Shown here: one piece after another, positions 16,066-63,129 of the stretch
How positions within the stretch are numbered: the stretch's first letter is position 1
Layout: every line of letters starts with the position of its first letter
Assembly: GCF_963921235.1 (NCBI RefSeq)
Contig: NC_086108.1
Location: 69,442,001 to 69,506,000 of the forward strand
Length of the DNA stretch: 64,000 bases
Origin: Mobula hypostoma
Taxonomy: Eukaryota
Direction of reading: 5' to 3'
Notes under the pieces: generated by a model
Database searches by the model: none
The model's input: only the letters and a program-made list of their open reading frames with translations
Told to the model about the DNA's origin: nothing
Translations under genes and position numbers: made by a program

Positions 16066-16269
16066 TTAAATAGGTGCATGGATGCAAGGAAGATGGACAA
16101 ACATGGACATAGTGTCGATAGGCAGGATTAACGTACGGGTGTTTTTGCTTTGTCTTTTAACTGGTTTGGAACAACCCGGTGCCAGAGAACCTGTTTCTGT
16201 GCTGTACTGTTCTATGTTCTATGACTCTGTAACATTAAATGTTGCACGTTCTAGAAATACATCTCTATT

Positions 16270-16510
16270 CTCCCATACACATAGTGCTGGAGGAACTCAG
16301 CAGATCAGGTAACATTTATGGAGAGAGAAAAAAAATAGCTTATGTTTCAAACCGAGATCCTTCATCTACCTTGATGAAGAGTCTCAGCCTGAAACATTGA
16401 CTATCCATTCTCCTCCATAGATGCAGCCTGACCTACTGGGTTCTTCCAGCATTTTGTGTCTGCATATGTGTGTGTGTTGATCCAAGTTCCCAGCATCTGC
16501 AGACTCTCAT
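16270..16510. repeat. Short PLE-derived fold-back element
   Basis: Left arm GCTGGAGGAACTCAGCAG...CCTTCATC and right arm GATGAAG...TTCTTCCAGCA are inverted complements. Confidence 0.7.
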
Positions 16511-16636: not shown

Positions 16637-19101
16637 TCGTTGGGGATTTTAACATGAAAATGGATTGGGAAAACCAGGTCAGTACTGGACCTCAAGAGAG
16701 AGAATTTGTAGAATGTCTAAGGGATGGCTTTTTAGAACAGCTTGTTGTTGAGCCCACTAGGGGATCGGCTGTGCTGGATTAGGTGTTGTGCAATGACCTG
16801 GAGGGGATAAAAGAGCTTAAGGTTAAGGAAGCATTAGGGAACAGTAATCACAATATGATCAAGTTCACATTGAAATTTGAGAGGGAAATAATAAAATCTA
16901 ATGTGTCGGTATTTCAGTGGAATAAAGGAAATTACAATGGCATGAGAGAGGAACTGGCCAAGGTTGACTGGAAAGGGACACCAGCAGGAAGGACAGCAGA
17001 GCAGCAATGGCTGGAGTTTCTGCGAAAAGTGAGGGAAGTGCAAGACAGATATATTCCAAATACTAAGAAATTTTCAAAGGGAAGAAGGACACTACAGTGG
17101 CTGACAAGTGAAGTCAAAGCCAAAGTAAAAGGAAAAGAGAGAGCATGCAAGGAGGCCAGAGCTAGTGGGAAGACAGAGGATTGGGAAGCTTTTAAAAACT
17201 TGCAGAAGGAAACTAAGAAGTTCATTCAGAAGGAAATGATGAATTATGAGAGCAAGCTGGAGACTAATATCAAACAAGATACTAAAAGCTTTTTTAAGTA
17301 TATAAAGCGTAAAAGAGAGTCGAGGGTAGATATGGGACCAATACAAAATGACGCTGGAGATATTGTAATGAGAGATGCAGAGATGGCAGAGGAACTGAAT
17401 TCATATTTTGCATCAGACTTCACAGTGGAAGACGTCTGCAGTATACTGGACAATCAACAGTGTCAGGAAAGTGAAGTTTTTGCAGTAAAACTTACGACTG
17501 AGAAGGTGCTCAGGAAGCTTAATGGTCTGAGGGTGGATAAATCTCCTGGACCTGATGGAATGCACCCTCAGGTTCTGAAGGAAGTAGCTGGAGAGATTGT
17601 GGAGGCATTAACAATGATCTTTCAAGAATCGATAGATTCTGGCATTGTGCCGGATGACTTGAAAATTTGCAAATGTTACTCCGCTATTTAAGAAGGGTGG
17701 GAGGCAGCAGAAAGGAAACTATAGACCTGTAGCCTGAGATCAGTGGTTGGGAAGTTGTTGGAATCGATTGTTAGGAATGAGATTACGGAGTACCTGGAGG
17801 CGCATGACAAGATAGGCCAAAGCTAGCATGGTTTCCTGAAAGGAAAACCCTGCCTGACTAACCTACTCCAAGTTTTTGAGGAAATTACAAGCAGAGGGAA
17901 CAAAGTAGATGTAGTGTACTTGGATTTTCAGAAGGCCTTTGACAAGGTGCCGTACATGAGGCTGCTTAGCAAGCTAAGAGCCCATGGAATTACAGGGAAG
18001 TTACTAGCATGAGTGGAGCATTGGCTGGTCAGCAGAAAACAGAGAGTGGGAATAAAGGGATCCTATTCTGGCTGGCTGCTGGTTACCAGTGGAGTTCCAC
18101 AGGGGTCGGTGTTAGGACTGCTGCTTTTTACGATGTATGTCAATGATTTGGACTATGGGATTAATGGATCTATGGCTAAATTTGCCGATGATACAAAGAT
18201 AAGTGAAGGAGCAGGTAGTGTTGAGGAAACGGAGAGCCTGCAGAGAGACTTAGATAGTTTAGGGGAATGGGCAAAGAAGTGGAAAATGAAACACAATGTT
18301 GTAAAGTGTATGGTCATGCACTTTGGTGGAAGAAATAAACAGGCAGACTATTACTTAGATGGGGAGAGAATTCAAAATGCAGAGATGCAAAGGGACTTGG
18401 GAGTCCTTGTGCAGGATACCCTAAAAGTTAACCTCCAAGTTGAGTCAGTTGTGAAGGCGGCAAATGCAATGCTGGCATTCATTTCGAGAGGTATAGAATA
18501 TAAGTGCAGGGATGTGATGTTGAGGCTCTATATGGCATTCATAAGACCACATTGAAGTATGGTGTGCAGTTCTGGGCTCCTTATTTTAGAAAGGATATAA
18601 TGACATTGGAGAGGGTTCGGAGAAGATTCACGACAATGATTCCAGGAATGAAAGGGTTACTGTATAAGGAACATCTGGCAGCTCTTGGGCTGTATTCCCT
18701 GGAGTTCAGGAGAATGAGGGGGGAATCTCATAGAAACATTCTAAATGTTAAAAGGCCTGAACAGATTAGATATGGCAAAGTTCCTTCCCATGGTAGAGAT
18801 TCTAGGACAAGAGGGCATGACTTCAGGATTCAGGATTACCTGAGATGCGGAACAATTAATTTAGCCAGAGGGTGGTAAATCTGTGGAATTTGTTGCTATG
18901 AGCGACTGTGGAGGCCAAGTAACTGGGTGTATTTAAGGCAGAGATAGATAGGTTCTTGATTAGCCAGGGCATCCAAGGGTACGGGGAGAAAGCAGGGCAG
19001 TGGGGATGACTGGAAGAACTAGATCAGTCAATGATCGAATTGAGGAGCAGACTCGACGGGCTGAATGGCCTACTTCTGCTCCGCTATCTTATGGTCTTAT
19101 A
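16637..19101 (+). mobile_element. CR1 LINE, most of ORF2 plus 3' end
   Basis: 302-aa and 180-aa ORF pieces (KSPGPDG, GVPQGSVLG, FADD). Tail is CTTATGGTCTTAT. Confidence 0.92.
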
Positions 19102-22248: not shown

Positions 22249-25200
22249 AACATAGAACATAGAATAGTACAGCACAGTACAGGCCCTTCGGCCCACAATG
22301 TTGTGCCGACCCTCAAACCCTGCCTCCCATATAAGCCCCCACCTTAGATTCCTCCATATACCTGTCTAGTAGTCTCTTAAACTTCACCAGTGTATCTGCC
22401 TCCACCACTGACTCAGGCAGTGCGTTCCACGCACCAACCACTCTCTGAGTAAAAAACCTTCCTCTAATATCCCCCTTGAACTTCCCACCCCTTACCTTAA
22501 AGCCATGTTCTCTTGTATTGAGCAGTGGAGCCCTGGGGAAGAGGTGCCGGCTATCCATTCTATCTATTCCTCTTATTATCTTGTACACCTCTATCATGTC
22601 TCCTCTCATCCTCCTTCTCTCCAAAGAGTAAAGCCCTAGCTCCCTTAATCTCTGATCATAATGCATACTTCCTAAAGCAGGCAGCATCCTGGTAAATCTC
22701 CTCTGTACCCTTTCCAATGCTTCCACATCTTTCCTATAGTGAGGTGACCAGAACTGGGCACAATACTCCAAGTATGGCCTAACCAGAGTTTTATAGAGCT
22801 GCATCATTACATCGCGACTCTTAAACTCTATCCCTCGACTTGTGAAAGCTAACACCCCATAAGCTTTCTTAACTACCCTATCCACCTGTGAGGCAACTTT
22901 CAGAGATCTGTGGACATGTACCCCGAGATCCCTCTGCTCCTCCACACTACCAAGTATCCTGCCATTTACTTTGTACTCTGCCTTGGAGTTTGTCCTTCCA
23001 AAGTGTACCACCTCACACTTCTCTGGGTTGAACTCCATCTGCCACTTCTCAGCCCACTTCTGCATCCTATCAATGTCTCTCTGCAATCTTTGACAATCCT
23101 CTACACTATCTACAACACCACCAACTTTTGTGTCGTCTGCAAACTTGCCAACCCAGCCTTCTACCCCCACATCCAGGTCGTTAATAAAAATTACGAAAAG
23201 TAGAGGTCCCAGAACAGATCCTTGTGAGACACCACTAGTCACAATCCTCCAATCTGAATGTACTCCCTCCACCACCACCCTCTGCCTTCTGCAGGCAAGC
23301 CAATTCTGAATCCACCTGGCCAAACTTCCCTGGATCCCATGCCTTCTAACTTTCTGAATAAGCCTACCGTGTGGAACCTTGTCAAATGCCTTACTAAAAT
23401 CCATATAGATCACATCCACTGCACTACCCTCATCTATATGCCTGGTCACCTCCTCAAAGAACTCTATCAGGCTTGTTAGACACGATCTGCCCTTCACAAA
23501 GCCATGCTGACTGTCCCTGATCAGACCACGATTCTCTAAATGCCTATACACCCTATCTCTAAGAATCTTTTCCAACAGCTTTCCCACCACAGACGCAAGG
23601 CTCACTGGTCTATAATTACCCAGACTATCCCTACTACCTTTTTTGAACAACGGGACAACATTCGCCTCCCTCCAATCCTCCGGTACCATTCCCGTGGACA
23701 ACGAGGACATAAAGATCCTAGCCAGAGGCTCAGCAATCTCTTCTCTCGCCTCATGGAGCAGCCGGGGGAATATTCCATCAGGCCCCGGGGACTTATCTGT
23801 CCTAATGTATTTTAACCACTCCAACACCTCCTCTCCCTTAATATCAGCATGCTCCAGAACATCAACCTCACTCATATTGTCCTCACCATCATCAAGTACC
23901 CTCTCATTGGTGAATACTGAAGAGAAGTATTCATTGAGGACCTCGCTCACTTCCACAGCCTCCAGGCACATCTTCCCACCTTTATCTCTAATCGGTCCTA
24001 CCTTCACTCCTGTCATCCTTTTTTTCTTCACATAATTGAAGAATGCCTTGGGGTTTTCCTTTACCCTACTCATCAAGGCCTTCTCATGCCCCCTTCTTGC
24101 TCTTCTCAGCCCCTTCTTAAGATCCTTTCTTGTTTCCCTATATTCCTCCATAGACCCAGCTGATCCTCGCTTCCTAAACCTCATGTATGCTGCCTTCTTC
24201 CTCCTGACTAGATTTTCCACCTCACTTGTCACCCATGGTTCCTTCACCCTACCATTCTTTATCTTCCTAACCGGGACAAATTTATCCCTTACATCCCGCA
24301 AGAGATTTCTAAACATCAACCACATGTCCATAGTACATTTCCCTGAAAAACAATCATCCCAATTCACACCCACAAGTTCTAGCCTTATAGCCTCATAATT
24401 TGCCTTTCCCCAATTAAAAATTTTCCTGTCCTCTTTGATTCTATCCTTTTCCATGATAATTATAAAGGCCAGGGAGCAGTGGTCACTGTCCCCCAGATGC
24501 TCACCCGCTGAGAGATCTGTGACCTGACCCGGTTTATTACCTAGTACTAGATCTAGTATGGCATTCCCCCTGGTCGGCCTGTCCACATACTGTGACAGGA
24601 ATCCATCCTGGACACACTTAACAAATTCTGCCCCATCTAAGCCCTTGGAACTAATCAGGTGCCAATCAATATTAGGGAAGTTAAAGTCACCCATGATAAC
24701 AACCCTGTTATTTTTGCACCTTTCCAAAATCTGCCTCCCAATCTGCTCCTCTGTATCTCTGCTGCTACCAGGGGGCCCATAGAATACCCCCAGGAGAGTA
24801 ACTGCTCCCTTCCTGTTCCCGACTTCCACCCACATTGACTCAAAAGAGGATCCTGCTACATTACCCACCCTTTCTGTAGCTGTAATAGTATCCCTGACCA
24901 GTAATGCCACCCCTCCTCCCCTTTTTCCTCCCTCTCTATCCCTTTTAAAGCACTGAAATCCAGGAATATTGAGAATCCATTCCTGCCCTGGTGCCAGCCA
25001 AGTCTGTGTAATGGCCACTACATCATAATTCCATGTATGTATCCAAGCTCTCAGTTCATCACCTTTGTTCCTGATGCTTCTTGCATTGAGGTACACACAT
25101 TTCAGCCCTTCTACTTTACTGTCTTTACACTGTTTACTCTGCCTCTCTTTCCTCAAAGCCTCTCTGTATGTTAGATCTGGCTTTACTCCATGCACTTCTT

Positions 25201-25434
25201 TCACTGCTCTATCGCTCTGGGTCCCATCCCCCTCGCAAATTAGTTTAAACCCTCCCGAACCATGCTAGCAAACCTACCTGCAAGGATATTGCTCCTCCTC
25301 GAGTTCAGGTGCAACCCATCCAATCTGTACAGGTCCCACCTTCCCCAGAAGAGATCCCAATGATCTAAAAATCTAAAACCCTGCTCCCTGCACCAACTCC
25401 TCAGCCACGCATTTAACTGCCATCTCCTCCAATT
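22249..25434 (-). mobile_element. Young CR1 LINE, 5'-truncated within ORF1, in TTC39A intron 1
   Basis: (TTCTATG)n tail complement at the left end, complete ORF2, and ORF1 esterase C-terminus ending GLN* at ~25240. Candidate TSD CTAACAT at 22247-22253 and 25435-25441. Confidence 0.95.
22313..25204 (-). CDS. CR1 ORF2: APE endonuclease plus reverse transcriptase, 963 aa uninterrupted
   Basis: YLNARS, GDFNFP, LDLV and SDH (APE); KSPGPDG, NYRPVSL, QHGF, DFSKAFD, QGSVLGP and FADD (RT). True start uncertain. Confidence 0.95.
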   Translation of the reverse strand: MKEVHGVKPDLTYREALRKERQSKQCKDSKVEGLKCVYLNARSIRNKGDELRAWIHTWNYDVVAITQTWLAPGQEWILNIPGFQCFKRDREGGKRGGGVALLVRDTITATERVGNVAGSSFESMWVEVGNRKGAVTLLGVFYGPPGSSRDTEEQIGRQILERCKNNRVVIMGDFNFPNIDWHLISSKGLDGAEFVKCVQDGFLSQYVDRPTRGNAILDLVLGNKPGQVTDLSAGEHLGDSDHCSLAFIIIMEKDRIKEDRKIFNWGKANYEAIRLELVGVNWDDCFSGKCTMDMWLMFRNLLRDVRDKFVPVRKIKNGRVKEPWVTSEVENLVRRKKAAYMRFRKRGSAGSMEEYRETRKDLKKGLRRARRGHEKALMSRVKENPKAFFNYVKKKRMTGVKVGPIRDKGGKMCLEAVEVSEVLNEYFSSVFTNERVLDDGEDNMSEVDVLEHADIKGEEVLEWLKYIRTDKSPGPDGIFPRLLHEAREEIAEPLARIFMSSLSTGMVPEDWREANVVPLFKKGSRDSLGNYRPVSLASVVGKLLEKILRDRVYRHLENRGLIRDSQHGFVKGRSCLTSLIEFFEEVTRHIDEGSAVDVIYMDFSKAFDKVPHGRLIQKVRRHGIQGSLARWIQNWLACRRQRVVVEGVHSDWRIVTSGVSQGSVLGPLLFVIFINDLDVGVEGWVGKFADDTKVGGVVDSVEDCQRLQRDIDRMQKWAEKWQMEFNPEKCEVVHFGRTNSKAEYKVNGRILGSVEEQRDLGVHVHRSLKVASQVDRVVKKAYGVLAFTSRGIEFKSRDVMMQLYKTLVRPYLEYCAQFWSPHYRKDVEALERVQRRFTRMLPALGSMHYDQRLRELGLYSLERRRMRGDMIEVYKIIRGIDRMDSRHLFPRAPLLNTREHGFKVRGGKFKGDIRGRFFTQRVVGAWNALPESVVEADTLVKFKRLLDRYMEESKVGAYMGGRV

Positions 25435-26617: not shown

Positions 26618-26775
26618 TGAAGAATAACAAACAAGGAAAAATCTGTAGATGCTGGAAATCCCAGCAACACACACAAAATGCTGCAGGAACTCAGCAGGCC
26701 AGGCAGCATCTATGGAAAAAAAGTACAGTCAACATTTCGGGCTGAAACCCTTCAGTAAGATACTGAAGAATAACA
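26618..26775 (-). mobile_element. Short PLE 3'-end insertion with 12-bp TSD
   Basis: TGAAGAATAACA at 26618-26629 and 26764-26775 flanks the PLE terminal sequence. Confidence 0.8.
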
Positions 26776-31698: not shown

Positions 31699-32306
31699 AG
31701 TTTGTTACGCAAACACGAGGAAATCTATAGATGCTGGAATTTCAAGTAACACACATAAAAGTTGCTGGTGAACGCAGCAGGCCAGGCAGCATCTCTAGGA
31801 AGAGGTACAGTCGATGTTTCAGGCCGAGACCCTTCGTCAGGACTAACTGAAGGAAGAGCTAGTAAGAGATTTGAAAGTCGGCGGCGGGGCGGAAGAAGGG
31901 GAAGATCTGAAATGATAGGAGAAGACAGGAGGGGGAGGGATGGTGCCAAGAGCTGGACAGTTGATTGGCAAAAGGGATATGAGAGGATTATGGGACAGCC
32001 CCATAATCCTCTCATATCTCCCTGCTCCCTCTTTTCTTTCTCCCTAGGCCTCCTGTCCCATGATCCTCTCATATCCCTTTTGCCAATCAACTGTCCAGCT
32101 CTTGACTCCATCTCTCCCCCTCCTGTCTTCTCCTATCATTTTGGATTTCCCCCTCCCCCCCACTTTCAAATCTCTTACTAGCTCTTCTTTCAGTTAGTCC
32201 TGACAAAGGGTCTTGGCCCGAAACGTCAACTGTACCTCTTCCTATAGATGCTGTCTGGCCTGCTGCGTTCACCAGCAAATTTTATGTGTGTTACGAAAGT
32301 TTGTTA
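31699..32306. mobile_element. PLE-derived inverted repeat (~250-bp arms) with 9-bp TSD
   Basis: AGTTTGTTA at 31699-31707 and 32298-32306. Arms are inverted complements (mirror ORFs MLVNAAGQ on both strands). Confidence 0.88.
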
Positions 32307-32834: not shown

Positions 32835-33055
32835 TATAAGGGAAAGTCTGCAGATGCCGGAAATCCAAGCAAAACACACACAAAATGCTGGAGAAACTCG
32901 GCAGGCCAGGCAGCATCTATGAAAACAAGTACAGTCGACGTCTCAGGGGTCCTGCCGAAGAGTCTCGGCTCGAAACGTCAACTGTACACTTTTCCATAGA
33001 GGCTGCCTGGCCTGCTGAGCTCCTCCAGCATCTTGTGTGTGTTGCTCATCATTAC
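32835..33055. repeat. Short PLE-derived fold-back element
   Basis: Arms ACACACAAAATGCTGGAG...GTACAGTCGACG and CGTCAACTGTAC...CTCCAGCATCTTGTGTGTGT. TCATTAC occurs on both flanks. Confidence 0.8.
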
Positions 33056-37652: not shown

Positions 37653-40600
37653 TTTGAACGCCAAATTTGGGACTGGGTAAATTGATTGGGTTAAAATTCC
37701 CGAAAGAAAGAAATGGCAAACAGCAGAAATGGAGATTGAGGAATTTCTAAAGGCGCCAACCTTGGAGGCATTAGAGGATGTCAGGAAATCAGAATTGGCA
37801 ACTGTTGCAAAACAGTTGAATCTTTTTAAGGGGAAGTCGACCATGAGGAGAGCGGAGATGCACAGAGCTATCACTGAGCGTTATGTATCTAAAGGTGTGT
37901 TTCCCCAAGGGGAGCTGGAGGTGGTATCTATGGGCAAACCTGGTGGAGAAGCAGTACAGCTGCAGATGGAAAAACTGAGACTCGAGCACGATTTCCGGGT
38001 AAGGCAGCTAGAACAAGAAGAGAAACAGTTAGAACGGCAAGAGAGAGAGAGGCAGTTAGAGTAACAAGAGAGAGAGAAGCAGAAGGAACAGGAATTTGTG
38101 CTGGAGAAGTAAAGGATGACGATAGCGCAGAGCCCCATGCCAAACCAAGGTGGTGGGTTCAGGGCGACCCAGGAGGTTAGGCTGGTTCCCCCTTTTGAGG
38201 AGGCCAATGTTGATTGGTACTTTCTACATTTTGAAAAAGTCGCTGCAAGTCAGGACTGGCCGAGGGATAAGTGGGCTGTTTTGCTTCAGAGCGTACTTAA
38301 GGGGAAGGCTCAGCAAGCTTACTCGGCATTGTCTGCAGAAGGTGCCCAGAGGTATGATGTGGTGAAAGAGGCGATACTCAGGATTTATGAGTTGGTCCCG
38401 GAGGCATACCGGCAGAGGTTCCGGAATGTAAGAAAGCAGTGGGGCCGCACATATTTAGAGGTTGCCCGTGAGATGCAGATGTATTGTGAGCGTTGGTGCG
38501 CCTCGAAAGGGGTCACTGGGGATTATGACAGACTGCTACAGCTAATACTAATTGAGCAGTTTAAAGGTTGTGTCCTGGAAGGTATGAGGTCCTACCTAGA
38601 TGAGAAAGAGGCAGAAACCTTAGCCGCACAAAGCGAAGTTTACCCCGCGTAAAATCTACCAGAAGGGTAGTCAAGCGGGCGGAGAGAGTCCGCCAGAAAA
38701 GCCAGAAATTAAGCCGGGGACTAGAGAGAAGGATAAGGAAGACCGGGAGCAGCTTGGTAGGAAGTCTCCTGGGGTCATATGCAATGATTGTGGGAAAGCT
38801 GGTCACTTTGCATCCAGGTGCTTTGCCCCAAAGAAGAAGACGGGGAAAGGAAAAACGACAATTCCGACTGCTGTATTGAGCTGGCAAACAAACCGCTAGG
38901 GGGGAAGAGGTCTGATAAAGTTCAGGAAGGGCGCGAGAAGTTTATTTCAGCCAGATTGGTGTCGGTGAAGGAGGGGTTAAACCCGGTTCCAGTACGGATC
39001 TGGAGAGACACTGGGGCTTGTCAGTCATTGATCTTAAAGAGTGTGTTAGACTTTAGTTCAGAGACCCGGACTGGGGAGGTCAGGGTGATAAAGGGCATTG
39101 GGAAAGGGACTGAAGCAGTACCTTTGCACCAGATATACCTAAAAAGCGACTTGGTCTCCGGACCTGTCACGATAGGAGTGAGGCCCGAATTACCAATGGA
39201 TGACGTGGAGGTCTTACTCGGTAATGACCTTGCAGGCGGAAATGTGTACCCAGCAGTAAAACTGACAAGCACTGAAGCCCCGCCCATGGACTCACAGGTT
39301 TATCCCGTTTGCGCAGTGACTCAGCGCATATCCAGAAAGGCTGCCGAAGTGAATATAGATTTAGCTGAGACGTTTTTACTAGCCTTGTACCAGGAGGGGT
39401 TAGAAAGTGAGAAGAAGGAGCATAGTGGAATGGAAGGAAGTGAGCGAGTTGAGGTAGACTTATCATTAGCAAGGAAGGAATTTATACAGGCACAGGAACG
39501 AGACGAGGAGCGAATGGTTTTGACGGAGACAGCTCTCTCTGAAGCAGAATTAAAAAGGGAGCCAGTGGGCTATTATGTGAAGGAGGGAGTACTAAGGAGG
39601 AAATGGAGACCAAATACCGTGCCCGCAGATGAGGAATGGAGGGTGGTGCACCAGGTGGTAGTGCCGAAAATTTATAGGGGCGAGATTTTTAACCTGGCCC
39701 ACAAGATACTCCTCGGTGGACATTTTGGGGTGAGGAAATCAGTCGATAGAATCATGAAAGAGTTTACTGGCGGCAAAGGAGGAAGGATGCTATTGACTAT
39801 TGTAGACGTGAGCAGACACAGTTACAGGCTATTGATATGCTAACAGCTTGCCACGATAAGCGAGCAGACCTAGTCGGTGTTATCACGAAAATTAACGAGG
39901 CTAGGGTGCCACCTGATAAGGGGAAAACCCATTTTGAAAAGATAAGTATGGTGCCGACCAGATGGGAGAACTCTATTGTTTTGGCCAGCTTTGCTGATAA
40001 GGTCTCTCCCTTAACCTCCTGAACAGAGCGAGCCGCTGAGAAAGCTAATTAACCAGCACGCAGACGTATGCCCGGATGTCCCAAGGCAATGCAAAGAGCC
40101 GGTACATGGTGTTGTCACATCAGGTCAGCCTAGTAAGCAACACCCCTACAGGATGACTAATTCAGTGATAAAAGGGCTAAAGAACGCAAAGCGTATATTG
40201 AGGATTTAGTGGTCTGGAGTGATACGTGGGAGGAACACATTGTGGAACTGTTTAAACGGCTGTTTGAAGCCAGCCTGACAGTGAACTTCGCAAAAAGTGA
40301 ATTCAGCCACGTGAAGATCACTTATCCGGGATTTGTGGTAGGACAGGGGCAGCTGGCACCGATGTAGGCTAAGGTGCGGGCTATCTCTGAAGTCCCCACC
40401 CCGACAGACAAGAGAGCCCTGAGAAGGTTCTTGGGGATGGTGGGGTACTATTGGAAGTTTTGCAAAAACTTTGTGGATATTACCCTCCCTCTTACTAAGC
40501 TCTTGCCAAAGAATGCGAAGTTTGTGTGGGACGACCTTTGTTATATTAGTCGGGAATGGAAACCACTGATAATTTACACTGATCACAACCCATTAGTGTT

Positions 40601-42282: not shown

Positions 42283-44301
42283 TAGTCATAGTCATAGTAG
42301 TCATAGTCATTATGTATTGATCACGAGGGAAATTTGGTTTCATTACAGTTGCACCAACCATGAACAAAGTATAAATATAGCCATATAAAACCATAAATAA
42401 TTAAATAATAATATGTAAATTATGCCAGGAAGTAAGTCCAGGACCAGCCTATTGGCTCAGGGTGTCTGACCCTCCAAGGGAGGAGTTGTAAAGTTTGATG
42501 GCCACAGGCAGGAATGACTTCCTATAACGCTCTGTGCTGCATCTTGGAGGAATGAGTCTCTGGCTGAATGTACTCCTGTGCCCAACCAGTACATTATGTA
42601 GTGGATGGGAGACATTGATCAAGATGGCATGCAACTTGGACAGCATCCTCTTTTCAGACACCACTGTCAGAGAGTCCAGTTCCATCCCCACAACATCACT
42701 GGCCTTACGAATGAGTTTGTTGATTCTGTTGGTGTCTGCTACCCTCAGCCTGCTGCCCCAGCACACAACAGCAAACATGATAGCACTGGCCACCACAGAC
42801 TCATAGAACATCCTCAGCATCATCCGGCAGATGTTAAAGGACCTCAGTCTCCTCAGGAAATAGAGACAGCTCTGACCCTTCTTGTAGACAGCCTCAGTGT
42901 TCTTTGACCAGTCCACTTTATTGTCAATTCCTATCCCCAGGTATTTGTAATCCTCCACCATGTCCACACTGACCCCCTGGATGGAAACAGGGGTCACCGG
43001 TACCTTAGCCCTCCTCAGGTCCACCACCAGCTCCTTAGTCTTTTTCACATTAAGCTGCAGATAATTCTGCTCACACCATGTGACAAAGTTTCCTACCGTA
43101 GCCCTGTACTCAGCCTCATCTCCCTTGCTGATACATCCAACTATGGCAGAGTCATCAGAAAACTTCTGAAGATGACAAGACTCTGTGCAGTAGTTGAAGT
43201 CTGAGGTGTAAATGGTGAAGAGAAAGGGAGACAAGACAGTCCCCTGTGGAGCCCCAGTGCTGCTGATCACTCTGTCGGACGCACAGTGTTGCAAGCACAC
43301 GTACTGTGGTCTGCCAGTCAGGCAATCAAGAATCCATGACACCAGGGGAGCATCCACCTACATCACTGTCAGCTTCTCCCCCAGCACAGCAGGGCAAATG
43401 GTGTTGAACGCACTGGAGAAGTCAAAAAACATGACCCTCACAGTGCTCGCTGGCTTGTCCAGGTGGGCGTAGACACGGTTCAGCAGGTAGACGATGGCAT
43501 CCTCAACTCCTAGTCGGGGCTGGTAGGCGAACTGGAAGGGATCTAAGTGTGGCCTGACCATAGGCCGGAGCAGCTCCAAAACAAGTCTCTCCAGGGTCTT
43601 CATGGTGTGGGAGGTCAATGCCACCGGTCTGTAGTCATTGAGGCCGCTGGGGCGCGGCATCTTCAGCACAGGGACGAGGCAGGACGTCTTCCACAGTACA
43701 GGAACCCTCCGGAGCCTCAGGCTCAGGTTGAATACATCATGAAGTACTCCACATGGCTGAGGGGCAGAGGCTTTGAGCACCCTGGTACTGACACCATCCG
43801 GTCCTGCAGCCTTGCTTGGGTTGAGACATTTCAACTGTCTTCTCACCTGTTCAGCTGTGAAGCCCACCGTGGTGGTTTCGTGTGGGGGAGGGGTATAGTC
43901 ATGAGAGCAGGGTGGGGGACTGTGAGGAGGGGTAGGAGGGGAGAGTGGACTATGTGTTGGTTGGGGTCCGAATAACAGATGAATCACGTGGGGGATGGGC
44001 AGGGGTCACAATGTCAAATCTGCTAAAGAACAGGTTAAATTCGTTGGCCCTGTCCACACTGCCTTCAGCTCCTCTGTTGCTAGTTTGCCGGAACCCAGTG
44101 ATGGTCCTCATCCCACTCCAGACCTCTCTCATGTTGTTCTGCTGGAGTTTCCACTCAAGCTTCCTCCTGTACCTTTCTTTAGCCTCCCTGATCCTGGCTT
44201 TCAGGTCCCTCTGTATTGCCTTCAGCTCCTCCCTATTTCCATCTCTAAACACCCTCTTTTTAGTGTTCAGGATGTCCTTAATGTCCTTTGTTACCCATGG
44301 C
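42283..44301 (-). mobile_element. Rex1/Babar-type element, 5'-truncated, nearly open RT
   Basis: 209-aa and 302-aa ORFs separated by one stop (KAAGPDG, DYRPVALTS, QFAYQ, DFSSAFNTI, GAPQG, FSDD). (TGACTA)n tail; same family as 34995-36364. Confidence 0.93.
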
Positions 44302-46787: not shown

Positions 46788-48088
46788 GAACAGTCAACAT
46801 TTTGGTCTGAGACCCTTCTTCAGGACTGGAAAGGAAGGGGGAAGACACCAGAATAAAAAGGTAAGAGGGGAGGGGAGGGGAAGAAAGAGAGTTAGAAGGT
46901 ATTAGGAGAAGCCTGGTGGGATGGAAAGGTAAGGGCTGGAGAGGAAAGAATCTGATAGGAGATGAGAGTGGACAAAGGGAAGGAGGAGGAGACCCAGGGA
47001 GAGGTGATAGGCAGGTGAAAAGAGTTAAGAAGTCAGAGAGGGTAATAGAAGAGTGGAGGGGGAGGGTATTGCTTTTTGCCATTAAGAGAAATTGATTTTC
47101 ATACGATCAGGCTGGAGGCTACCTGATGGAATATAAGGTGTTGCTCCTGCACCCTCAGAGTGGATTCATCATGGCACAAGAGGAGGCCACTGACTGACAC
47201 ATTGGAATGGGAACGGGATTCAGAATTAAGATGTTTGACCACTAGGAAGTTCCATTTTTGGCGATGAAACGGAGGTGCTTGATGAAGCAGTCACCAATGT
47301 GGAGGCTGCTGCATCAGGAGCACCAAACACAATAGACAGCCCCAGCAGATTCACAGGACAGGTGATGCCTCACCTGGGACTCCTTGGGGCCCTGAACGGA
47401 AATGAGGGAGGATTTGAATGGGTAAGTGTAGCACTTTGGTCACTTGCAGTTAAGTGCTGGGAGGAAAATTAGTGGAGAGAGACAAATGGACAAGGGAAGG
47501 ATGGAGGGAGCAATCCCTACAGAAAGCAGAGAGAGGGGGAGAAATAATGATATGTTTGGTGGTAGGAGATGGTGGAATTTGCAGAGAATAATGTGTTGGA
47601 TGTAGAGGCTCATGGGGTGGTAGGTAAAGACAAGAGGGCTTTGTCACTGTTAAGGCGGTGGGAAGATATTTGGGAAATGGAGGAGATACGGGCAAGGGCA
47701 GCATCTATGGTAGAGGAAGGGAAACCCTGTTCTTTGAAGGAGGACACCTCTGATGTCCTGAAAAGGAAGGCTGCATCCTGAGAACAGATGTGGCCAAGAC
47801 AAAGGATCTGAAAAGAAAGGAATAGTATTTTTAATTGAAACAGGATGGGATGAGATATAGTCAGGATAACTGTTGACAGTTTGTCTCCAGAGATGGAGAC
47901 AGAGAGATTGAGAAAGGAAAGAGAGGTGTCAGAAATGTGAATTTGAAGGCAGGGTGGAAGTTGGAGGCAAAGTTGATAAAATTGACGAGCTCAGCATGGG
48001 TGCATGAAGCAGCACCAAACAGTCATCAATCTAATGGAGAAAGAGTTGGGGGCATTATCTGGGTAAGCTTGAATGTGGCTCTACAGAA

Positions 48089-48864: not shown

Positions 48865-51039
48865 AGAGACCTCCCCCTCCCCTCTTCTATTCCCCACTCT
48901 AGTCTTCTACCTCTCCTCACCTACCTAGCAACCCCCCCCCCCCCGGGGCTCCTTCCTCTTTCCCATTCTCCTCTATCAGATCCCTTCCTTTCCAGCCCTT
49001 TACATTTCCTACCCACCAGGCTTCTCCTACTACCTCCTAACTAGCCGCCTTAACCCGCTTCCACCAAACTTTTTATTCTGGCATCTTCTCCCTTCCTCTC
49101 CAATCCTGAAGAAGGGTCTCAGCTCAAACATTGATTTGTTTATTCACTTCCATAGATTCTGCCTGACCTGCTGAGTTCCTCCAGCATTTTGGGTTTCTCA
49201 TGCACAAAATGCTCTCTTCTCACTGTTGACATCAGGTAGAAAGTATAAGGACTTGCACCACTAGATTCAAGAACAGTTATGAACCCTCAACCATCAGGCT
49301 CTTGAACAAAAGAAGATAACTACACTCATTCTACTTCTGGTGTTCCCACAACTGATGGTCTCACTTTAAGAACTCTTTACCTTGTTATTTCATGCTTTCA
49401 TTATTTATGGCTATCTATTTATATTTGCATTTGCACACTTTGTTGTCCATTGATCCCACTTACAGTTGCTGTTCTGTAGATTTGCTAAGTATGCCCACAG
49501 AAAAAGAATCTCAGGGCTGTATGAGGTGACGTATATGTACTCTGATAAGTTTTACTTTGAACAAAGCTGTGCTGACTGTCCTGAATCACATCTTGCCCCT
49601 CAGAATTCCCTCCAGCAATTTACTCACCACTAACGTCAGGCACACTGCCCCGTAGTTTCCTAGCTTGTTTTTTGCTCACCGCTTCAAACAATGGTGCAAA
49701 TTTGTTACTCTCTAATTTCTTTTCCAACTTTCCACAAGAAAAATGCACCAGGTCATGAATGAGGTATGGTCTTATTTAAGACACAAGATGCAAGACCATA
49801 AAATATGGTAACAAATTCAGGCCATTCAGCCTGTCAGGTCTGTTCTATATAAGATTCAGAGGGGAATCTACAGGATGAAAGCCGATACGTTTCCCTTAAT
49901 AGAGGTACAAGAGTAACTCAGAATTAGATGGAGATGAGGAGGAATTTCTTCTATCAGAGGGTCTTGGTTTCTAGGAATTTGCTACCCTTTCGAGCTGTGG
50001 AAGCGGAGTCATTGAGGTAGAAAGTAATGGTAATTTGAACCACCAAAGGCATCAAAGGGTATGCAAGTGGTGTTGAGGCCAAGTCTGCATCAGCCATGAC
50101 GTTATTGAATGGAGGAGCAGGTTCAAGGGCTTCACCAGACTATTCGTGCTCCTGTTTCTTACATTCTTAAGATGGAAGTAAACTCCAGTAATTTCCATTG
50201 ACTGCATTACTGTATTCACTGCACTTGTATCCTTTACATAAGATCATATGAAAATTAGATATTGATAAACAATTCTGCTCAGTCTGCAATGATAACTGAG
50301 ATTCTGGTGATGCTCTATTTCAATTCTCACTTCAGATCCATTCTGACCTTCCTTTCCAAGTACAACATTTGTGGCTTCAGCATTTTACAACTTTAACAAT
50401 TTTAAACATTATCCATTGGTTTTTCCTCAGACAGCTAATAACTGAGGACGACTTTACCAAAGCAAAAATGAATGGCTACCATGTGGTACGAGAATTCTCA
50501 AGTGTAGAAGGCACTTGGCCCAGCTGCATTATAATCACGGCTCTTATCTCAGTCTTTCTCTGACTCCTGGCTCCTGGTCACACACCAGACCATGTTGCAC
50601 ATCTAAAAGGCCATTTAATTTGAGGCAATGCCTGTTTTCATTACCCCACCAAATGAAACTGTTTCACTATAACTAAAAACGTTGATCATTTATAGATCTA
50701 CTTTAATATATTCATTATGATTTGTATTTAACCATTTATAATTCATTGATCTGTAGAGATCAATTTACCTAAAATAATTCAAGACAATTCAATTTTGAAG
50801 GCTGTAAAATGCCTAGAGGAAAGATGAGGTGCTGTTCATCAAGATTATTTTGGATCTTGTTTGAAGAATGCAGGCCACAGACAGATGGGGACAGGATGCC
50901 AATGTTCCATCAGTCTTTTTTCTCCTTCCCACCCCAGCATCCACAGATCGAAATAATCCCTTCAGCGGTGATTCACTTAGACCTACTGCAGACTAGCGAA
51001 CTCCATTTGGTACTCACAATGTACAACGCAGAAACCAAA

Positions 51040-52156
51040 TACAGATTGTGAGCAACATACATCAAAGTTGCTGGTGAACGCAGCAGGCCAAGCAGCATCT
51101 ATAGGAAGAGGTGCAGTCGACGTTTCAGGCCGAGACCCTTCGTCAGGACTAACTGAAGGAAGAGTGAGTAAGGGATTTGAAAGCTGGAGGGGGAGGGGGA
51201 GATGCAAAATGATAGGAGAAGACAGGAGGGGGAGGGATAGAGCCGAGAGCTGGACAGGTGATAGGCAAAAGGGGATACGAGAGGATCATGGGACAGGAGG
51301 TCCGGGAAGAAAGACAAGCGGGGGGGGGTGACCCAGAGGATGGGCAAGAGGTATATTCAGAGGGACAGAGGGAGAAAAAGGAGAGTGAGAGAAAGAATGT
51401 GTGCATAAAAATGAGTAACAGATGGGGTACGAGGGGGAGGTGGGGCCTAGCGGAAGTTAGAGAAGTCGATGTTCATGCCATCAGGTTGGAGGCTACCCAG
51501 ACGGAATATAAGGTGTTGTTCCTCCAACCTGAGTGTGGCTTCATCTTTACAGTAGAGGAGGCCACATCCCATTCCCATTCTGACATGTCTATCCACGGCC
51601 TCCTCTACTGTAAAGATGAAGCCACACTCAGGTTGGAGGAACAACACCTTATATTCCGTCTGGGTAGCCTCCAACCTGATGGCATGAACATCGACTTCTC
51701 TAACTTCCGCTAAGGCCCCACCTCCCCCTCGTACCCCATCTGTTACTCATTTTTATGCACACATTCTTTCTCTCACTCTCCTTTTTCTCCCTCTGTCCCT
51801 CTGAATATACCTCTTGCCCATCCTCTGGGTCACCCCCCCCACCTTGTCTTTCTTCCCGGACCTCCTGTCCCATGATCCTCTCGTATCCCCTTTTGCCTAT
51901 CACCTGTCCAGCTCTCGGCTCTATCCCTCCCCCTCCTGTCTTCTCCTATCATTTTGCATCTCCCCCTCCCCCTCCAGCTTTCAAATCCCTTACTCACTCT
52001 TCCTTCAGTTAGTCCTGACGAAGGGTCTCGGCCTGAAACGTCGACTGCACCTCTTCCTATAGATGCTGCTTGGCCTGCTGCGTTCACCAGCAACTTTGAT
52101 GTATGTTGCTTGAATTTCCAGCATCTGCAGAATTCCTGTTGTTTACAGATTGTGAG
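51040..52156. mobile_element. Young PLE insertion forming a ~1.06-kb palindrome, 13-bp TSD
   Basis: Arms 51051-51563 and 51597-52110. TACAGATTGTGAG at 51040-51052 and 52144-52156. Encodes the C-terminal peptide EATLRLEEQHLIFRLGSLQPDGMNIDFSNFR on both strands. Confidence 0.93.
52011..52046 (+). ncRNA. Minimal type I hammerhead ribozyme motif (mirror copy at 51115-51150, minus)
   Basis: AGUC-CUGACGA-AGG(GUCUCGG)CCU-GAAAC-GUC^GACU: complete core, stem I AGUC/GACU, stem II AGG/CCU, and a loopless palindromic stem III (ACGU). Confidence 0.75.
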
Positions 52157-58901: not shown

Positions 58902-61900
58902 TTCTTTTCTTTTTAAATCTTTTTATTGAGTAAGTATACAAAAAAGGTAAGCCATATAAACATTAATACAATGTTAAAGTATAATAAAATTCCAAAAGAT
59001 AACAATACCAAAAAGAAAATACTACAAACAATGTAATTTAAGCATAAGAAACCAAGATAACATAATAGTATACTAGATTTTATATATATCAATGGAAAGA
59101 AAGAAAAAAAAAACCCCAAAAAAAAACCCACCGTGCAACTAACTAAAAGCAAAGCAAAGCAATGGGCTAACTTGAAACCAAACAGAGTTAAACTTAAAAT
59201 CACGTCCTCAATCCCGACCTCCATTAAAACAGTGAAGAGAAAACAAGAAGGGTAAATATTACATTAAATGAAAATATCGAATAAAAGGTCCCCAAATCTG
59301 TTCAAATTTAAATGAAGAATCATAAAGGTTACTTCTAATTTTCTCCAGATTCAAACATAAAATCGTCTGAGAAAACCAAAAAAAGGTAGTTGGAGCATTA
59401 AGCTCTTTCCAATGTTGTAAAATACATCTTTTCGCCATTAAAGTAAGAAATGCAATCATTCTACGGGCTGAAGGGGAAAGATTACTAGAAATTTTAGGTA
59501 GTCCAAAGATAGCAGTAATAGGGTGAGGAGAGATATCTATATTTAATACCTTAGAAATAATATTGAAAATATCTCTCCAAAAAGTTTCCAAAGTAGGGCA
59601 AGACCAAAACATATGAGTTAAAGAGGCTATCTGCCCCGAACATCTATCACAGAAAGGATTAATATGCGAGTAAAAACGCGCTAACTTATCTTTAGACATA
59701 TGTGCTCTATGAACCACTTTAAATTGAATTAGGGAATGTTTAGCACAAATAGAGGAAGTATTAACTAATTGTAAAATCTGCCCCCAATCATCCACAGAAA
59801 TGGTAAGCCCCAATTCCTGTTCCCAATCTACCCTAATCTTATCAAATGGAGCTTTCCTAAGTTTCATAATAATATTATAAATCATAGCCGATGCACCTTT
59901 CTGACATGGATTAAGGTTAATTATCGAATCTAAAATATATATAGGAGGAAGCATTGGAAAGGAAGTAAGTATAGTACTTAGGAAATTTCTAACTTGTAAA
60001 TATCTAAAAAAATGTATTCTTGATAAGTTATATTTATTAGATAATTGTTCAAAAGACATAAGGGAACCATCTAAAAATAAATCCAAAAACCGTAAAATAC
60101 CCTTAGTCTTCCAAGTTTGAAAAGCGCGATCCGTAAAAGAGGGAGGAAAAAATATGTTACCTAAAATAGGAATCGCTAACCCGAATTGATTAAGATCAAA
60201 AAATTTTCTGAATTGAAACCAAATGCGCAAAGCATATTTAACTATCGGGTTAGAGACCTGCTTAAGACGTTTCGAATCAAAAGGAAGAGAGGAACCTAAA
60301 ATAGAACCAAGTGTATAACCCTGAACAGATTGTAATTCCAATGCTACCCATTTAGGAATAAATAGTATGTCCCGGTCAAGTAACCAAAATTTCATATGTC
60401 GAATATTAATAGCCCAATAATAAAATCTAAAGTTAGGTAATGCTAAACCTCCATCTCTCTTAGCTTTCTGTAAATGTATTTTACCCAGTCTCGGATTCTT
60501 GTTCTGCCAAATAAATGAAGAAATTTTAGAGTCAACTTTATCAAAAAAAGATTTAGGAACGAAAATTGGTAATGCCTGAAACACATATAAAAATTTTGGC
60601 AAAAAAAACATCTTAACTGCATTAATACGACCAATCAAAGTTAAATATAAGGGAAACCATTTAGATGAAAGTTGAGTAATATGGTCTATTAATGGTAAAA
60701 AGTTAGTCTTAAATAAATCTTTATGTTTACAAGTAATTTTAATCCCAAGATATGAAAAGTAATTATTAATCAATTTAAATGGAAATTTATAATATAAGGG
60801 AAGATGTTTATTAATCGGGAAAAGTTCACTCTTACTAAGATTTAATTTATAACCTGAGAAAAGACCAAATTGTGCTAATAACTCTAAAACAGCAGGAATG
60901 GATCTCTCAGGATTAGAAATATATAAAAGTAAATCATCAGCATAGAGTGATAATTTATGGGACTTTAATCCCCGAGTTATCCCAGTAATATTTAAAGATT
61001 CTCGAATAGCAATTGCAAGAGGTTCTAATGCAATATCAAATAATAGGGGACTAAGAGGACAGCCTTGTCGAGTACCACGAAAGAGAGGAAAAAAAGGTGA
61101 GTTTAAGGAGTTAGTACGAACCGAGGCTACAGGGGAGTGATATAACAGTTTAATCCAGGATATAAATTTCAAGCTAAAATTAAACATTTCAAGCACCTTA
61201 AATAAATAAGGCCATTCTACTCTATCAAAAGCTTTCTCGGCATCTAAAGAAATAACACACTCAGGAACATTTTGTGAGGGAGTATAAACGATATTTAACA
61301 ATGTGCGAATATTATAAAAAGAGTAACGACCTTTAATAAAACCCGTTTGGTCTTCCGAAATAATAGAAGGAAGTACTTTTTCTAGTCTATTTGCTAATAA
61401 CTTAGAAAAAACTTTAGAATCAACATTTAATAAAGATATTGGTCTATAAGATGCACATTGAGCAGGGTCTTTATCCTTCTTTAGTATTAAAGAAATTGAT
61501 GCTCTATTAAAAGATTCCGGAAGTTTACCAAGTTTCAAAGAAGCCTCAAAAACCTTATAGAGCCAAGGAATCAATAAAGAAGCAAAACATTTATAAAATT
61601 CAACGGTAAACCCATCAGGGCCAGGAGCTTTCCCCAGATTCATAGAAAAAATAACATTCTTAATCTCATCCATTGTAATGGAAGTATCTAATAAAGAAGA
61701 CATATCCTGTGAAATCAGAGGGAAGTCTAACTTATCTAAAAAATCATTCATATATTTAGAATCTCGAGGAGACTCTGATTGGTATAAAGAAGAATAAAAA
61801 TCACAAAAGGTTTGATTAATCCCCACATGATCCAATATCAATCGATCATTTTGGTTATAAATCTGATTGATTTGAGATTTAACATAATTAGATTTCAATT

Positions 61901-62659
61901 GATTAGCCAGCAGCTTGCCAATTTTATCACTGTGAACATAAAAATCACTTCTTGTTTTCTTTAATTGGTTTACAATCGAGGACGAGAGTAGTAAACTGTG
62001 TTCCATTTGAAGTTCAGTTCTTTGTTTGTATAGCTCCTCAGAAGGAGCCATAACATATTTCTTATCAATTTCTTTAATCTTGTCCACAATTACCATCTCC
62101 TCCTGCTTCTGTTTCTTCCTCAAAGCAACGGAATACGAAATAATCTGACCCCGAATATAGGCTTTAAAAGTGTCCCAAAGAGTGTTAACCGAAATATCTT
62201 CTGTATGGTTAATTGTAAAAAAAAGCTCAATCTGTTCATTCATAAAATTAACAAAGTCCGAGTCCTGAAGCAACAGCGAATTAAAACGCCATTGTCTATT
62301 GTTTGATATATTGGCCATAATTTTAATAGAAAGCTTAAGTGGAGCATGATCCGAAATGGTTATAGAATCATAATCACATTTAATCACTGAAGGAATGAGA
62401 CGAGAATCAATGAAAAAATAATCAATTCTTGAATAGGAATGATGAACATGTGAAAAGAAGGAAAAATCTTTTTCCTGAGGATGCAGAAAACGCCAAATGT
62501 CCGTCGACCCAGAATCAGAAAGGAAAAAATTAATCAAATTTGCAGATTTATTAGGTAAAGTCCGTAAAGGAGCCGAACGGTCCAAAGCTGGAGATAAACA
62601 GGTATTAAGATCTCCGCCCCAAATCAATGAAAACTCGTTCAAATTCGGAAACTGATCAA
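58902..62659 (-). mobile_element. L1-clade LINE, 5'-truncated, with 12-bp TSD, in an EPS15 intron
   Basis: TSD ACCTTCAGTCCT at 58890-58901 and 62660-62671. Minus-strand AATAAA at 58922-58927 and an A-rich tail. Confidence 0.95.
59259..62659 (-). CDS. L1 ORF2, open from the truncation point to the stop (half EN, RT, CCHC)
   Basis: GGDLN, SRIDY and SDH (EN C-half); KAPGPDG, YRPISLLN, DAEKAFD, RQGCPLSP and YADD (RT); CDRC-x8-H-x4-C knuckle. No stop in more than 1127 codons. Confidence 0.95.
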
Positions 62660-63129
62660 ACCTTCAGTCCTGTATTCATCACCTTTTTGATTTTGCCCCC
62701 ATGTTACACTTCAACTCATCCCACTAGCTGCAATTTTGCCCTATCACTCTGGTTCCCATTCCCCTGCCAAATGAGTTTAAACCCTCCCCAACAGCTCTGG
62801 CAAATCTGCCCACAAGGATTTTGGTCCTACTCAGGTTCAGGTTAACCTGTCCCCTTTGTACAGGTAATACCTTCTCCAGAAGAGATCCCAATGATACAGA
62901 AACCTGAAACCCTGCCCCTTTTTTGCACCACTTCCTCAACCACGCATTCATCAGTACCTTCATCTTATTCCTGCCTTGATTAGCACATGGCACTGGGAGT
63001 AATTCAGAGTCTATGACTTTGGAGCATCCAAGTTGAAGTGAATGGACACCATGGATGTCTAAAGTGACTTTCCCCATCTACTCAAATGCTTTAACATGTA
63101 CGGTATCAAGCCTATTGCATACAGAAAGG

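Follow-up and report, generated by a model that had tools for sequence, protein, structure and literature searches.

A 36-nt sequence with the core of a hammerhead ribozyme occurs on both strands of a palindrome in the genome of Mobula hypostoma. The locus raises two questions, whether the two-strand arrangement is a device in its own right and what the ribozyme has to do with the copying of the repeat that carries it. The window, the whole stretch of DNA that was analysed, comprised 64,000 nucleotides of contig NC_086108.1 (positions 69,442,001 to 69,506,000, assembly GCF_963921235.1), and its own numbering is used throughout.

The hammerhead motif and its host element

Direct sequence comparison confirmed that the 36-mer at 52011-52046 on the forward strand is the reverse complement of 51115-51150. 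The core was as originally predicted, with CUGACGA at 52015-52021, GAAA at 52035-52038 and C52042 as position 17, and the ACGU at 52038-52041 was indeed self-complementary and loopless. Positions within the 36-mer are numbered by the established hammerhead convention. This numbering also follows PMC4209133. The older copies previously named (31809, 32196, 32948 and 49102) were all present and all differed from the 36-mer. The claim that they carry core mutations did not hold for the copy at 31809-31844, which has no change in the catalytic boxes and only a G to A change in stem III. Further copies, absent from the original prediction, are given in Table 1. In the 3.48-Gb genome (200 contigs) 32,886 exact copies of the 36-mer were counted (16,386 forward, 16,500 reverse), compared to 0 matches for a reversed-pattern control, so the motif is not a chance occurrence and the suspicion of a very abundant ribozyme-like family was well founded. 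The covariance-model search put forward with that suspicion gave no support, as no Rfam hammerhead family was found in the window at E<=1, a result to be expected for a motif without a usable stem III. Rfam matches to miRNAs at 31921-32130 and nearby were below the gathering scores and were discarded as hairpin artefacts.

Judged by its sequence, the host element is a young and very abundant Penelope-like element (PLE) with an RT and a GIY-YIG domain. The 39 close copies of the tail-bearing arm were taken as 10-kb stretches, one of which (L052) contained a frame of 783 aa and another a frame of 669 aa with the same terminal peptide. The two frames gave weak matches to RVT_1 (E 1.6e-4) and GIY-YIG (E 1.7e-3), both short of the Pfam cut-offs, and the L052 translation shows a DKG motif and a CX4CxxC linker. 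A CX2-5CxxC linker between RT and EN marks the Neptune and Nematis PLEs (PMC8557442); the linker found here is that of the Neptune clade and is common to Nematis too. In five loci the frame stays open upstream through the tail for 260 more codons. The window copy, with only 49 codons, is likely a passenger, and a Pfam search of this 49-aa piece alone gave no match. The first ATG of the downstream frame, at 52103-52105 in the pseudo-LTR, was polymorphic (of 40 copies, 26 have A and 14 have G), and the start actually used is therefore likely an ATG further on. The same hammerhead combined with different 3' UTRs was noted in at least two further PLE families (L320, L323, L327, L332, L335 and L336).

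Table 1. Coordinates of the palindromic insertion, its hammerhead motif and related motif copies in the window
Feature	Position	Strand	Remark
Target-site duplication (13 bp), left copy	51040..51052	+	
Inverted, tail-less, 5'-truncated arm	51051..51563	-	511/514 identical to 51597-52110
Tail-bearing arm, 5'-truncated 3' end of PLE	51564..52146	+	98-99% identity to 39 other loci
Unpaired centre (33 nt), element-derived sense sequence	51564..51596	+	CC microhomology (2 nt) at head-to-head join
Last 49 codons and stop of RT/GIY-YIG frame	51564..51713	+	Translation matches L052 C-terminus
Pyrimidine-rich 3' UTR / pseudo-LTR body	51714..52010	+	Largely unalignable between families
Presumed initiator-like and splice-acceptor-like word over the ribozyme's first bases	52005..52012	+	5' ends of short copies pile up at 52011-52012
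Minimal type-I hammerhead motif	52011..52046	+	Predicted cut after C52042
Stem I	52011-52014/52043-52046	+	Part of hammerhead
Stem II	52023-52026/52031-52034	+	Closed by G10.1·U11.1; A52022 unpaired
Stem III, ACGU	52038-52041	+	Palindromic, loopless
Tail (~36 nt), one arm only	52111..52146	+	Arm ends at ~+65 and ~+101 from cut
Target-site duplication (13 bp), right copy	52144..52156	+	
Identical hammerhead copy in inverted arm	51115..51150	-	Sequence identity
Older motif copy	31809-31844	-	1 difference
Older motif copy	32196-32231	+	4 differences
Older motif copy	32948-32983	+	6 differences
Older motif copy	49102-49137	+	13 ungapped differences
Further motif copy	46792-46827	-	
Further motif copy	14997-15032	-	
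Further motif copy	26727-26762	-	
Further motif copy	16367-16402	+	
Further motif copy	16337-16372	-	

Stem II had been drawn as AGG/CCU, which proved to be one base out of register; in the correct register A52022 is left unpaired. In 31 distinct natural stem-II regions the A52022-unpaired register keeps 26, 26, 27, 31 and 21 of 31 pairs, and the register drawn earlier keeps 13, 27, 26, 1 and 30. Predicted pair probabilities in the 36-mer were 0.86-0.95 for the former versus 0.02 for the latter. The unpaired base between A9 and 10.1 was A in all 31 distinct regions. Position 11.1 was U in 69 of 79 arms (mean identity of 96.6% to the reference copy), giving G·U, and C in the other 10 (86.1% identity), giving G-C in older copies. 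The C11.1 form had 13,134 genomic matches, obtained with a looser pattern than the 32,886 exact U11.1 matches. The pairing of G10.1 with 11.1 is kept in the dominant subfamily but the base identity is not, the pair being a G·U wobble. G10.1-C11.1 is called highly conserved in PLE minimal hammerheads in PMC4209133, and the U11.1 of the dominant subfamily may mean a weakened activity.

The expected conservation of core and stems in the family was borne out, in that the core boxes were kept in three PLE families. Two sister families have a reading frame ~78% identical to that of the present element. The 3' UTR is unalignable among the three families for ~270-280 nt, and alignment is regained at the first base of the motif or 13 nt before it. 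Differences among the motifs of the three families are limited to loop II, position 11.1 and the final base, and the core boxes CUGANGA and GAAA with an NUH triplet were found in the window motif and in all three. Conservation of the motif across diverged families is, at the level of sequence, good evidence of selection. Covariation was thin, with mostly one-sided changes, some stem II mismatches and scarcely any true two-sided covariation.

As proposed earlier, stem III is unable to close as a monomer, its palindromic ACGU leaving no usable loop. The monomer was predicted to misfold its core, with GACG pairing with CGUC at a probability of 0.96-0.98, and its fold was no more stable than those of shuffled sequences (z -0.37). 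Such a misfold would agree with dependence on a partner or a protein (PMC11167929). Stems I and II reached a probability of 0.4-0.5 in an RNA starting at 52011, folded much less in an RNA starting at 52012 (0.12-0.21) and were at 0.00 with 51 nt of upstream sequence. By sequence and conservation the motif is a PLE-type minimal hammerhead, for which cleavage is predicted only in a dimer or with help from the protein of the element.

Anatomy of the palindromic insertion

The hallmarks of EN+ PLE insertions, namely partial tandem or inverted repeats, a tail and a target duplication, were all found at the locus, and the identity between the two arms was 99.4%. Inverted arms were common, being found in 21 of 40 close long copies and among 48 of 101 consecutive arms. 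They are described for PLE insertions in PMC3846280 and PMC8557442, and opposite-strand hammerhead pairs 100-700 bp apart are also known (PMC4209133). The two-strand arrangement is nothing special but the ordinary inverted arm of a PLE insertion. Centres and arm lengths varied by locus, and the longer arm can be either of the two; priming on two strands accounts for this better than the fold-back of one cDNA. The 3' ends of 101 arms were located at +95 or beyond in 50 cases, at +55 to +75 in 43 and elsewhere in 8; two priming start sites have been reported for the PAc element (PMC11167929).

The arms of 21 pairs had 29 shared private variants and agreed at 152 of 169 non-CpG sites, compared to a random expectation of 124.5, although only 16 of 25 non-CpG minor alleles were common to both arms of a pair. 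An origin of the two arms from two different RNAs held together by a ribozyme dimer was considered and is not supported by the shared private variants. Nor can one arm serve as the dimer partner of the other; the native partner is a direct tandem copy ~3.5 kb away, or a second RNA. In an RNA reading through the entire palindrome all 36 nt were predicted to pair with the antisense arm, so that fold-back would mask the ribozyme, but this is trivial, as it follows from any inverted repeat. The related claim, that a transcript from either strand holds the ribozyme and its antisense, applies to read-through RNA only; an RNA starting at the ribozyme, as considered below, would run outward and lack the antisense.

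An older palindromic insertion of the same family was seen at 31711-32294, 86-88% identical and with a tail on one arm and a shorter centre. Short palindromes of related families, in which the arms join inside or beside the hammerhead, were located at 32844-33046 and ~16260-16451 and belong to the same short class as seen genome-wide.

Ends of copies at the cut site and at the first bases of the ribozyme

Priming begins 65-101 nt downstream of the cut, and copies made from a linear RNA that had been cut would therefore have G52043 as their first base. Of the arms that carry the downstream anchor, 36,642 run on to GAA and 1,042 fail a three-base gate at the cut. Ninety of the latter were examined, and 9 were direct deletions; 11 of the other 81 end at the cut, with 1-9 ends at each other position of a 16-position window. 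Genome-wide, 136 ends were counted at the cut versus 85 at +4 and 81 at -3, the control offsets. All three counts are inflated by microhomology classes, and by hand count 22 of the first 100 listed cut-site ends were stem-I microhomology joins. Cut RNA as the main template route, with a sharp footprint at G52043, was rejected, the excess being at most ~1.6-fold. About 15 listed loci were perfect palindromes centred on the self-complementary GTCGAC spanning the predicted cut, and about a dozen were centred 4-6 nt downstream of it; both palindrome classes look microhomology-driven.

A pile-up of 5' ends was observed further upstream. It was measured in 101 consecutive arms within the initial 8.3 Mb of a single contig, C1 (100 listed arms and one more in the same DNA), a sample in which the arms of one palindrome are not independent. 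Ends at 23-52 nt upstream of the predicted cut (-23 to -52) were found for 39 of the 93 arms at risk. This corresponds to 39 ends in 2,120 nt at risk (1.84% per nt) against 23 in 13,838 (0.166% per nt) at -53 to -400, a pile-up of ~11-fold over background. Solo arms alone also showed it (10 of 47, ratio 6.3, p=7e-5), and in inverted copies the ratio was 35. A gate upstream of -39 passed 12,439 arms, and 100 listed arms were tallied by hand; 14 were dropped (other families, ambiguous cases, indels), and three of those tallied proved to be members of other families. The remaining 86 ends were distributed with 19 at -31, 14 at -32, 8 at -33, 7 at -26 and fewer elsewhere. They spread from -21 to -60 around a mode at -31/-32, and the peak corresponds to the first two bases of the ribozyme, 52011-52012. 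Subfamilies with 89-98% identity to the reference copy have ends at the same position. A genome-wide total of 17,430 was not taken as a count, since it includes members of at least two other families.

A target duplication of 7-15 bp within 4 nt of the 5' join was present in 11 of 16 family solos ending at -31 to -33; part of the solo sample consists of 20 loci picked by eye as solo-looking. A common upstream leader was sought among the 16 solos and none was shared. The short solos are complete mini-insertions of ~97 or 133 bp with an uncut ribozyme, and rough scaling gives ~5,000 of them versus at most ~400 ends at the cut. For the short copies, the RNA templates likely had their start at the ribozyme and had not been cut. 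Because religation into a circle restores the cut site, the absence of cutting is proposed for the short class only. That 5' ends of copies accumulate at the first ribozyme bases is a new detail here; a description of a pile-up at the 5' edge of the ribozyme was not found in the open-access literature, which is weak evidence of absence. A near-full-length copy at L073:629-759 is preceded only by a tail and an inverted arm ending at -31. In run X2, contigs with unrelated sequence before 52010, 52011 and 52012 (5, 6 and 8 contigs) resembled the genomic pile-up; these contigs may be DNA or intronic reads. A cap-derived extra G at the join was dismissed as a signal, the cases being too few and confounded by target microhomology.

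Long copies behaved differently. A direct upstream 3'-end copy, spanning the motif and joined to the frame, was carried by 8 of 30 near-full-length loci, with a unit of ~3.5 kb. All eight of these upstream partners run 141-666 nt past the cut with no stop at -32 (Fisher p=0.017), and a start at the ribozyme can therefore not hold for every template. This hints that long copies come from RNA without that end, either multimers or circles. Circles were proposed in PMC4209133 and are reviewed in PMC6765202. Insertion into an existing copy could also be the origin of the direct tandems.

The locus very probably contains a conserved minimal hammerhead of the pseudo-LTR of a young, abundant PLE, which is present on two strands by way of an inverted arm, is predicted to depend on a dimer or a protein, and is likely positioned at the very start of the linear RNA. 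In the proposed mechanism the protein of the element would nick both DNA strands, reverse transcription would be primed at two internal sites, ~+65 and ~+101 from the cut, and the cDNAs would be joined head to head by microhomology to give the palindrome. The linear RNA would end at the first bases of the ribozyme. If priming took place on the tail copy near the 5' end of this RNA, the enzyme would run off after ~97 or 133 nt and leave short copies beginning at the ribozyme, which would be uncut at that moment.

The word at 52005-52012 is one that we take to be both initiator-like and splice-acceptor-like by comparison with consensus sequences, and the initiator-like word overlaps the site in three families. 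PLE promoters sit in the pseudo-LTR (PMC2377424). A transcription start at the first bases of the ribozyme is our preferred cause of the RNA end, a choice held tentatively and just short of an even call. It is favoured by this overlap, by the location of PLE promoters and by the prediction that the stems form only without upstream sequence.

A 5'-to-3' exonuclease stopping at the protein-bound ribozyme, or other processing of a longer read-through RNA, is a somewhat unlikely origin of the RNA end. The same end position recurs in subfamilies of 89-98% identity and coincides in three families with the presumed initiator-like word, and a 4-bp stem alone would probably block weakly. Processing would, on the other hand, suit the heterogeneous ends (-21 to -60 around the -31/-32 mode) and the long tandem copies, which need RNA reaching upstream of -32, and the protein of the element is reported to bind near the region and to assist the ribozyme (PMC11167929). 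The pile-up could also be made at the DNA level, with no RNA end involved, if the cDNA, once it includes a copy of stem I's 5' strand, folds back on its complementary sequence and either halts or primes itself. Such folding would agree with the ratio of 35 in inverted copies and with the stem-I joins (22 of the first 100 listed cut-site ends), but solo copies pile up too (ratio 6.3) and in long copies the upstream partners read through this sequence with no stop, and we find it unlikely. Use of the AG at 52011-52012 as a 3' splice acceptor, with the pile-up arising from splicing or intron-linked processing, is very unlikely despite a pyrimidine tract and then YAG preceding the motif in three families, and despite the 3' end of the D. 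virilis Penelope intron mapping to the 5' end of helix I (PMC4209133). The solo copies have a target duplication beside the join and no common upstream exon, only 5 of the 86 hand-tallied ends are at -30, and none of 15 direct-type junctions, pooled from loci chosen in different ways and used for junction types only, joins at -30 or -31.

Returning to the preferred start at the ribozyme, it may be asked whether the motif still cuts. It is doubtful that the dominant-subfamily motif has lost its ribozyme activity and has been retained as a promoter, a protein-binding or an RNA-pairing signal, as all catalytic-box positions are kept in three families with frames ~78% identical, and the 1.6-fold excess of cut-site ends may be real. 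A loss of activity would, however, explain the few ends at the cut site and agree with the predicted core misfold and with G10.1·U11.1 in the form counted 32,886 times, against 13,134 matches for the looser C11.1 pattern. In vitro, insertion was unimpaired with catalytic mutants (PMC11167929), and PMC8557442 raises the possibility that HHRs are dispensable. The original reading of the palindrome as a built unit, with fold-back masking a ribozyme on each strand, is hardly credible: full masking is predicted for read-through RNA and the arms are 99.4% identical, but neither arm length nor centre is constant across loci, and the anatomy is a described by-product of PLE insertion (PMC3846280, PMC8557442). 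A scheme with two kinds of template, in which uncut linear RNA would give the short mini-insertions and ribozyme-cut, religated circles or multimers the long, partial-tandem copies, is speculative and probably wrong in this form.

Comparison with known systems

The motif, the dimer logic and the two-strand occurrence are already known, and the present ribozyme is an unusually abundant member of its kind with a wobble closing pair. Minimal hammerheads with low, dimer-only activity were described in metazoan PLE pseudo-LTRs by Cervera and de la Pena 2014 (PMC4209133). These share with the present motif type I, the short stem I, the unpaired base between 9 and 10.1, the palindromic 15.2-16.2 without a loop and the location in a pseudo-LTR, as well as their occurrence mostly as single dispersed motifs with opposite-strand pairs 100-700 bp apart. 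The present motif differs from them in G10.1·U11.1 in the dominant subfamily, in a stem II of 4-5 bp, and in its 32,886 identical copies compared to ~4,000 and ~9,000 mostly variable motifs in coelacanth and Xenopus, respectively (PMC4209133). The element also fits the anatomy of EN+ PLEs of the Neptune/Nematis linker type (PMC3846280, PMC8557442), with RT, GIY-YIG at the C-terminus, the CX2-5CxxC linker, partial tandems, an inverted 5'-truncated arm, a 30-40 bp tail at one end, a target duplication and a frame running through the tail. The 5'-end pile-up at the first bases of the ribozyme sets it apart from the anatomy given in the accessible parts of these two sources.

PAc, a Poseidon element of Anolis (PMC11167929), is similar in that two internal priming sites define the tail, both strands are primed, a hammerhead lies just upstream and unprocessed RNA is the main template. 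It belongs to a different clade, its evidence is biochemical and in vitro whereas the present evidence is genomic, and its cut lies 26 nt into the reading frame, compared to ~60 nt before the first (polymorphic) ATG here. Pr77/L1TcRz of the trypanosome L1Tc (PMC3383444) likewise lies at the first nucleotides of a retrotransposon RNA, as seems to be the case here; it is, however, HDV-like, cuts upstream of itself and defines +1, whereas cleavage by the present hammerhead would fall 32 nt from the start of the RNA. The non-LTR retrozymes of animals (bioRxiv 10.64898/2026.07.22.740005) are also PLE-derived and hammerhead-bearing, being non-coding and found as dispersed monomers too, but they are defined as short head-to-tail tandem arrays, and at the present locus a coding element has inserted in truncated, inverted form. 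Its arms are inverted and contain coding sequence, which does not agree with a retrozyme, and only 2 same-strand motif pairs within 4 kb were seen among the first 100 exact matches listed.

The role of PLE hammerheads is called unclear in PMC8557442, and hammerhead cleavage was dispensable in vitro (PMC11167929). One identical PLE hammerhead in 32,886 copies is a fossil record of which RNAs were copied. The pile-up, the near absence of cut-site ends and the read-through of long copies provide coordinates for the mapping of caps, cyclic phosphates and circles, and such mapping could settle whether PLE ribozymes make the template for transposition. If the two-template scheme were true, the hammerhead would be a switch from messenger, giving dead-end copies, to circle, giving live ones, and the primed 5' tail copy of the linear RNA would yield thousands of ribozyme-bearing mini-insertions of 97-133 bp.

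Other elements were also seen in the window. The frame at 16783-17691 (302 aa) had no Pfam match. An integrase zinc-binding match (E 2.5e-4) at 38788-39843(+) and a partial RVT_1 with an ALKBH8_N match at 42449-43357(-) are likely fragments of an LTR element and a LINE. The long frames at 22313-25264(-), of 983 aa, and 59259-62663(-), of 1,134 aa, gave RVT_1 and AP-endonuclease-family matches and are young LINE copies.
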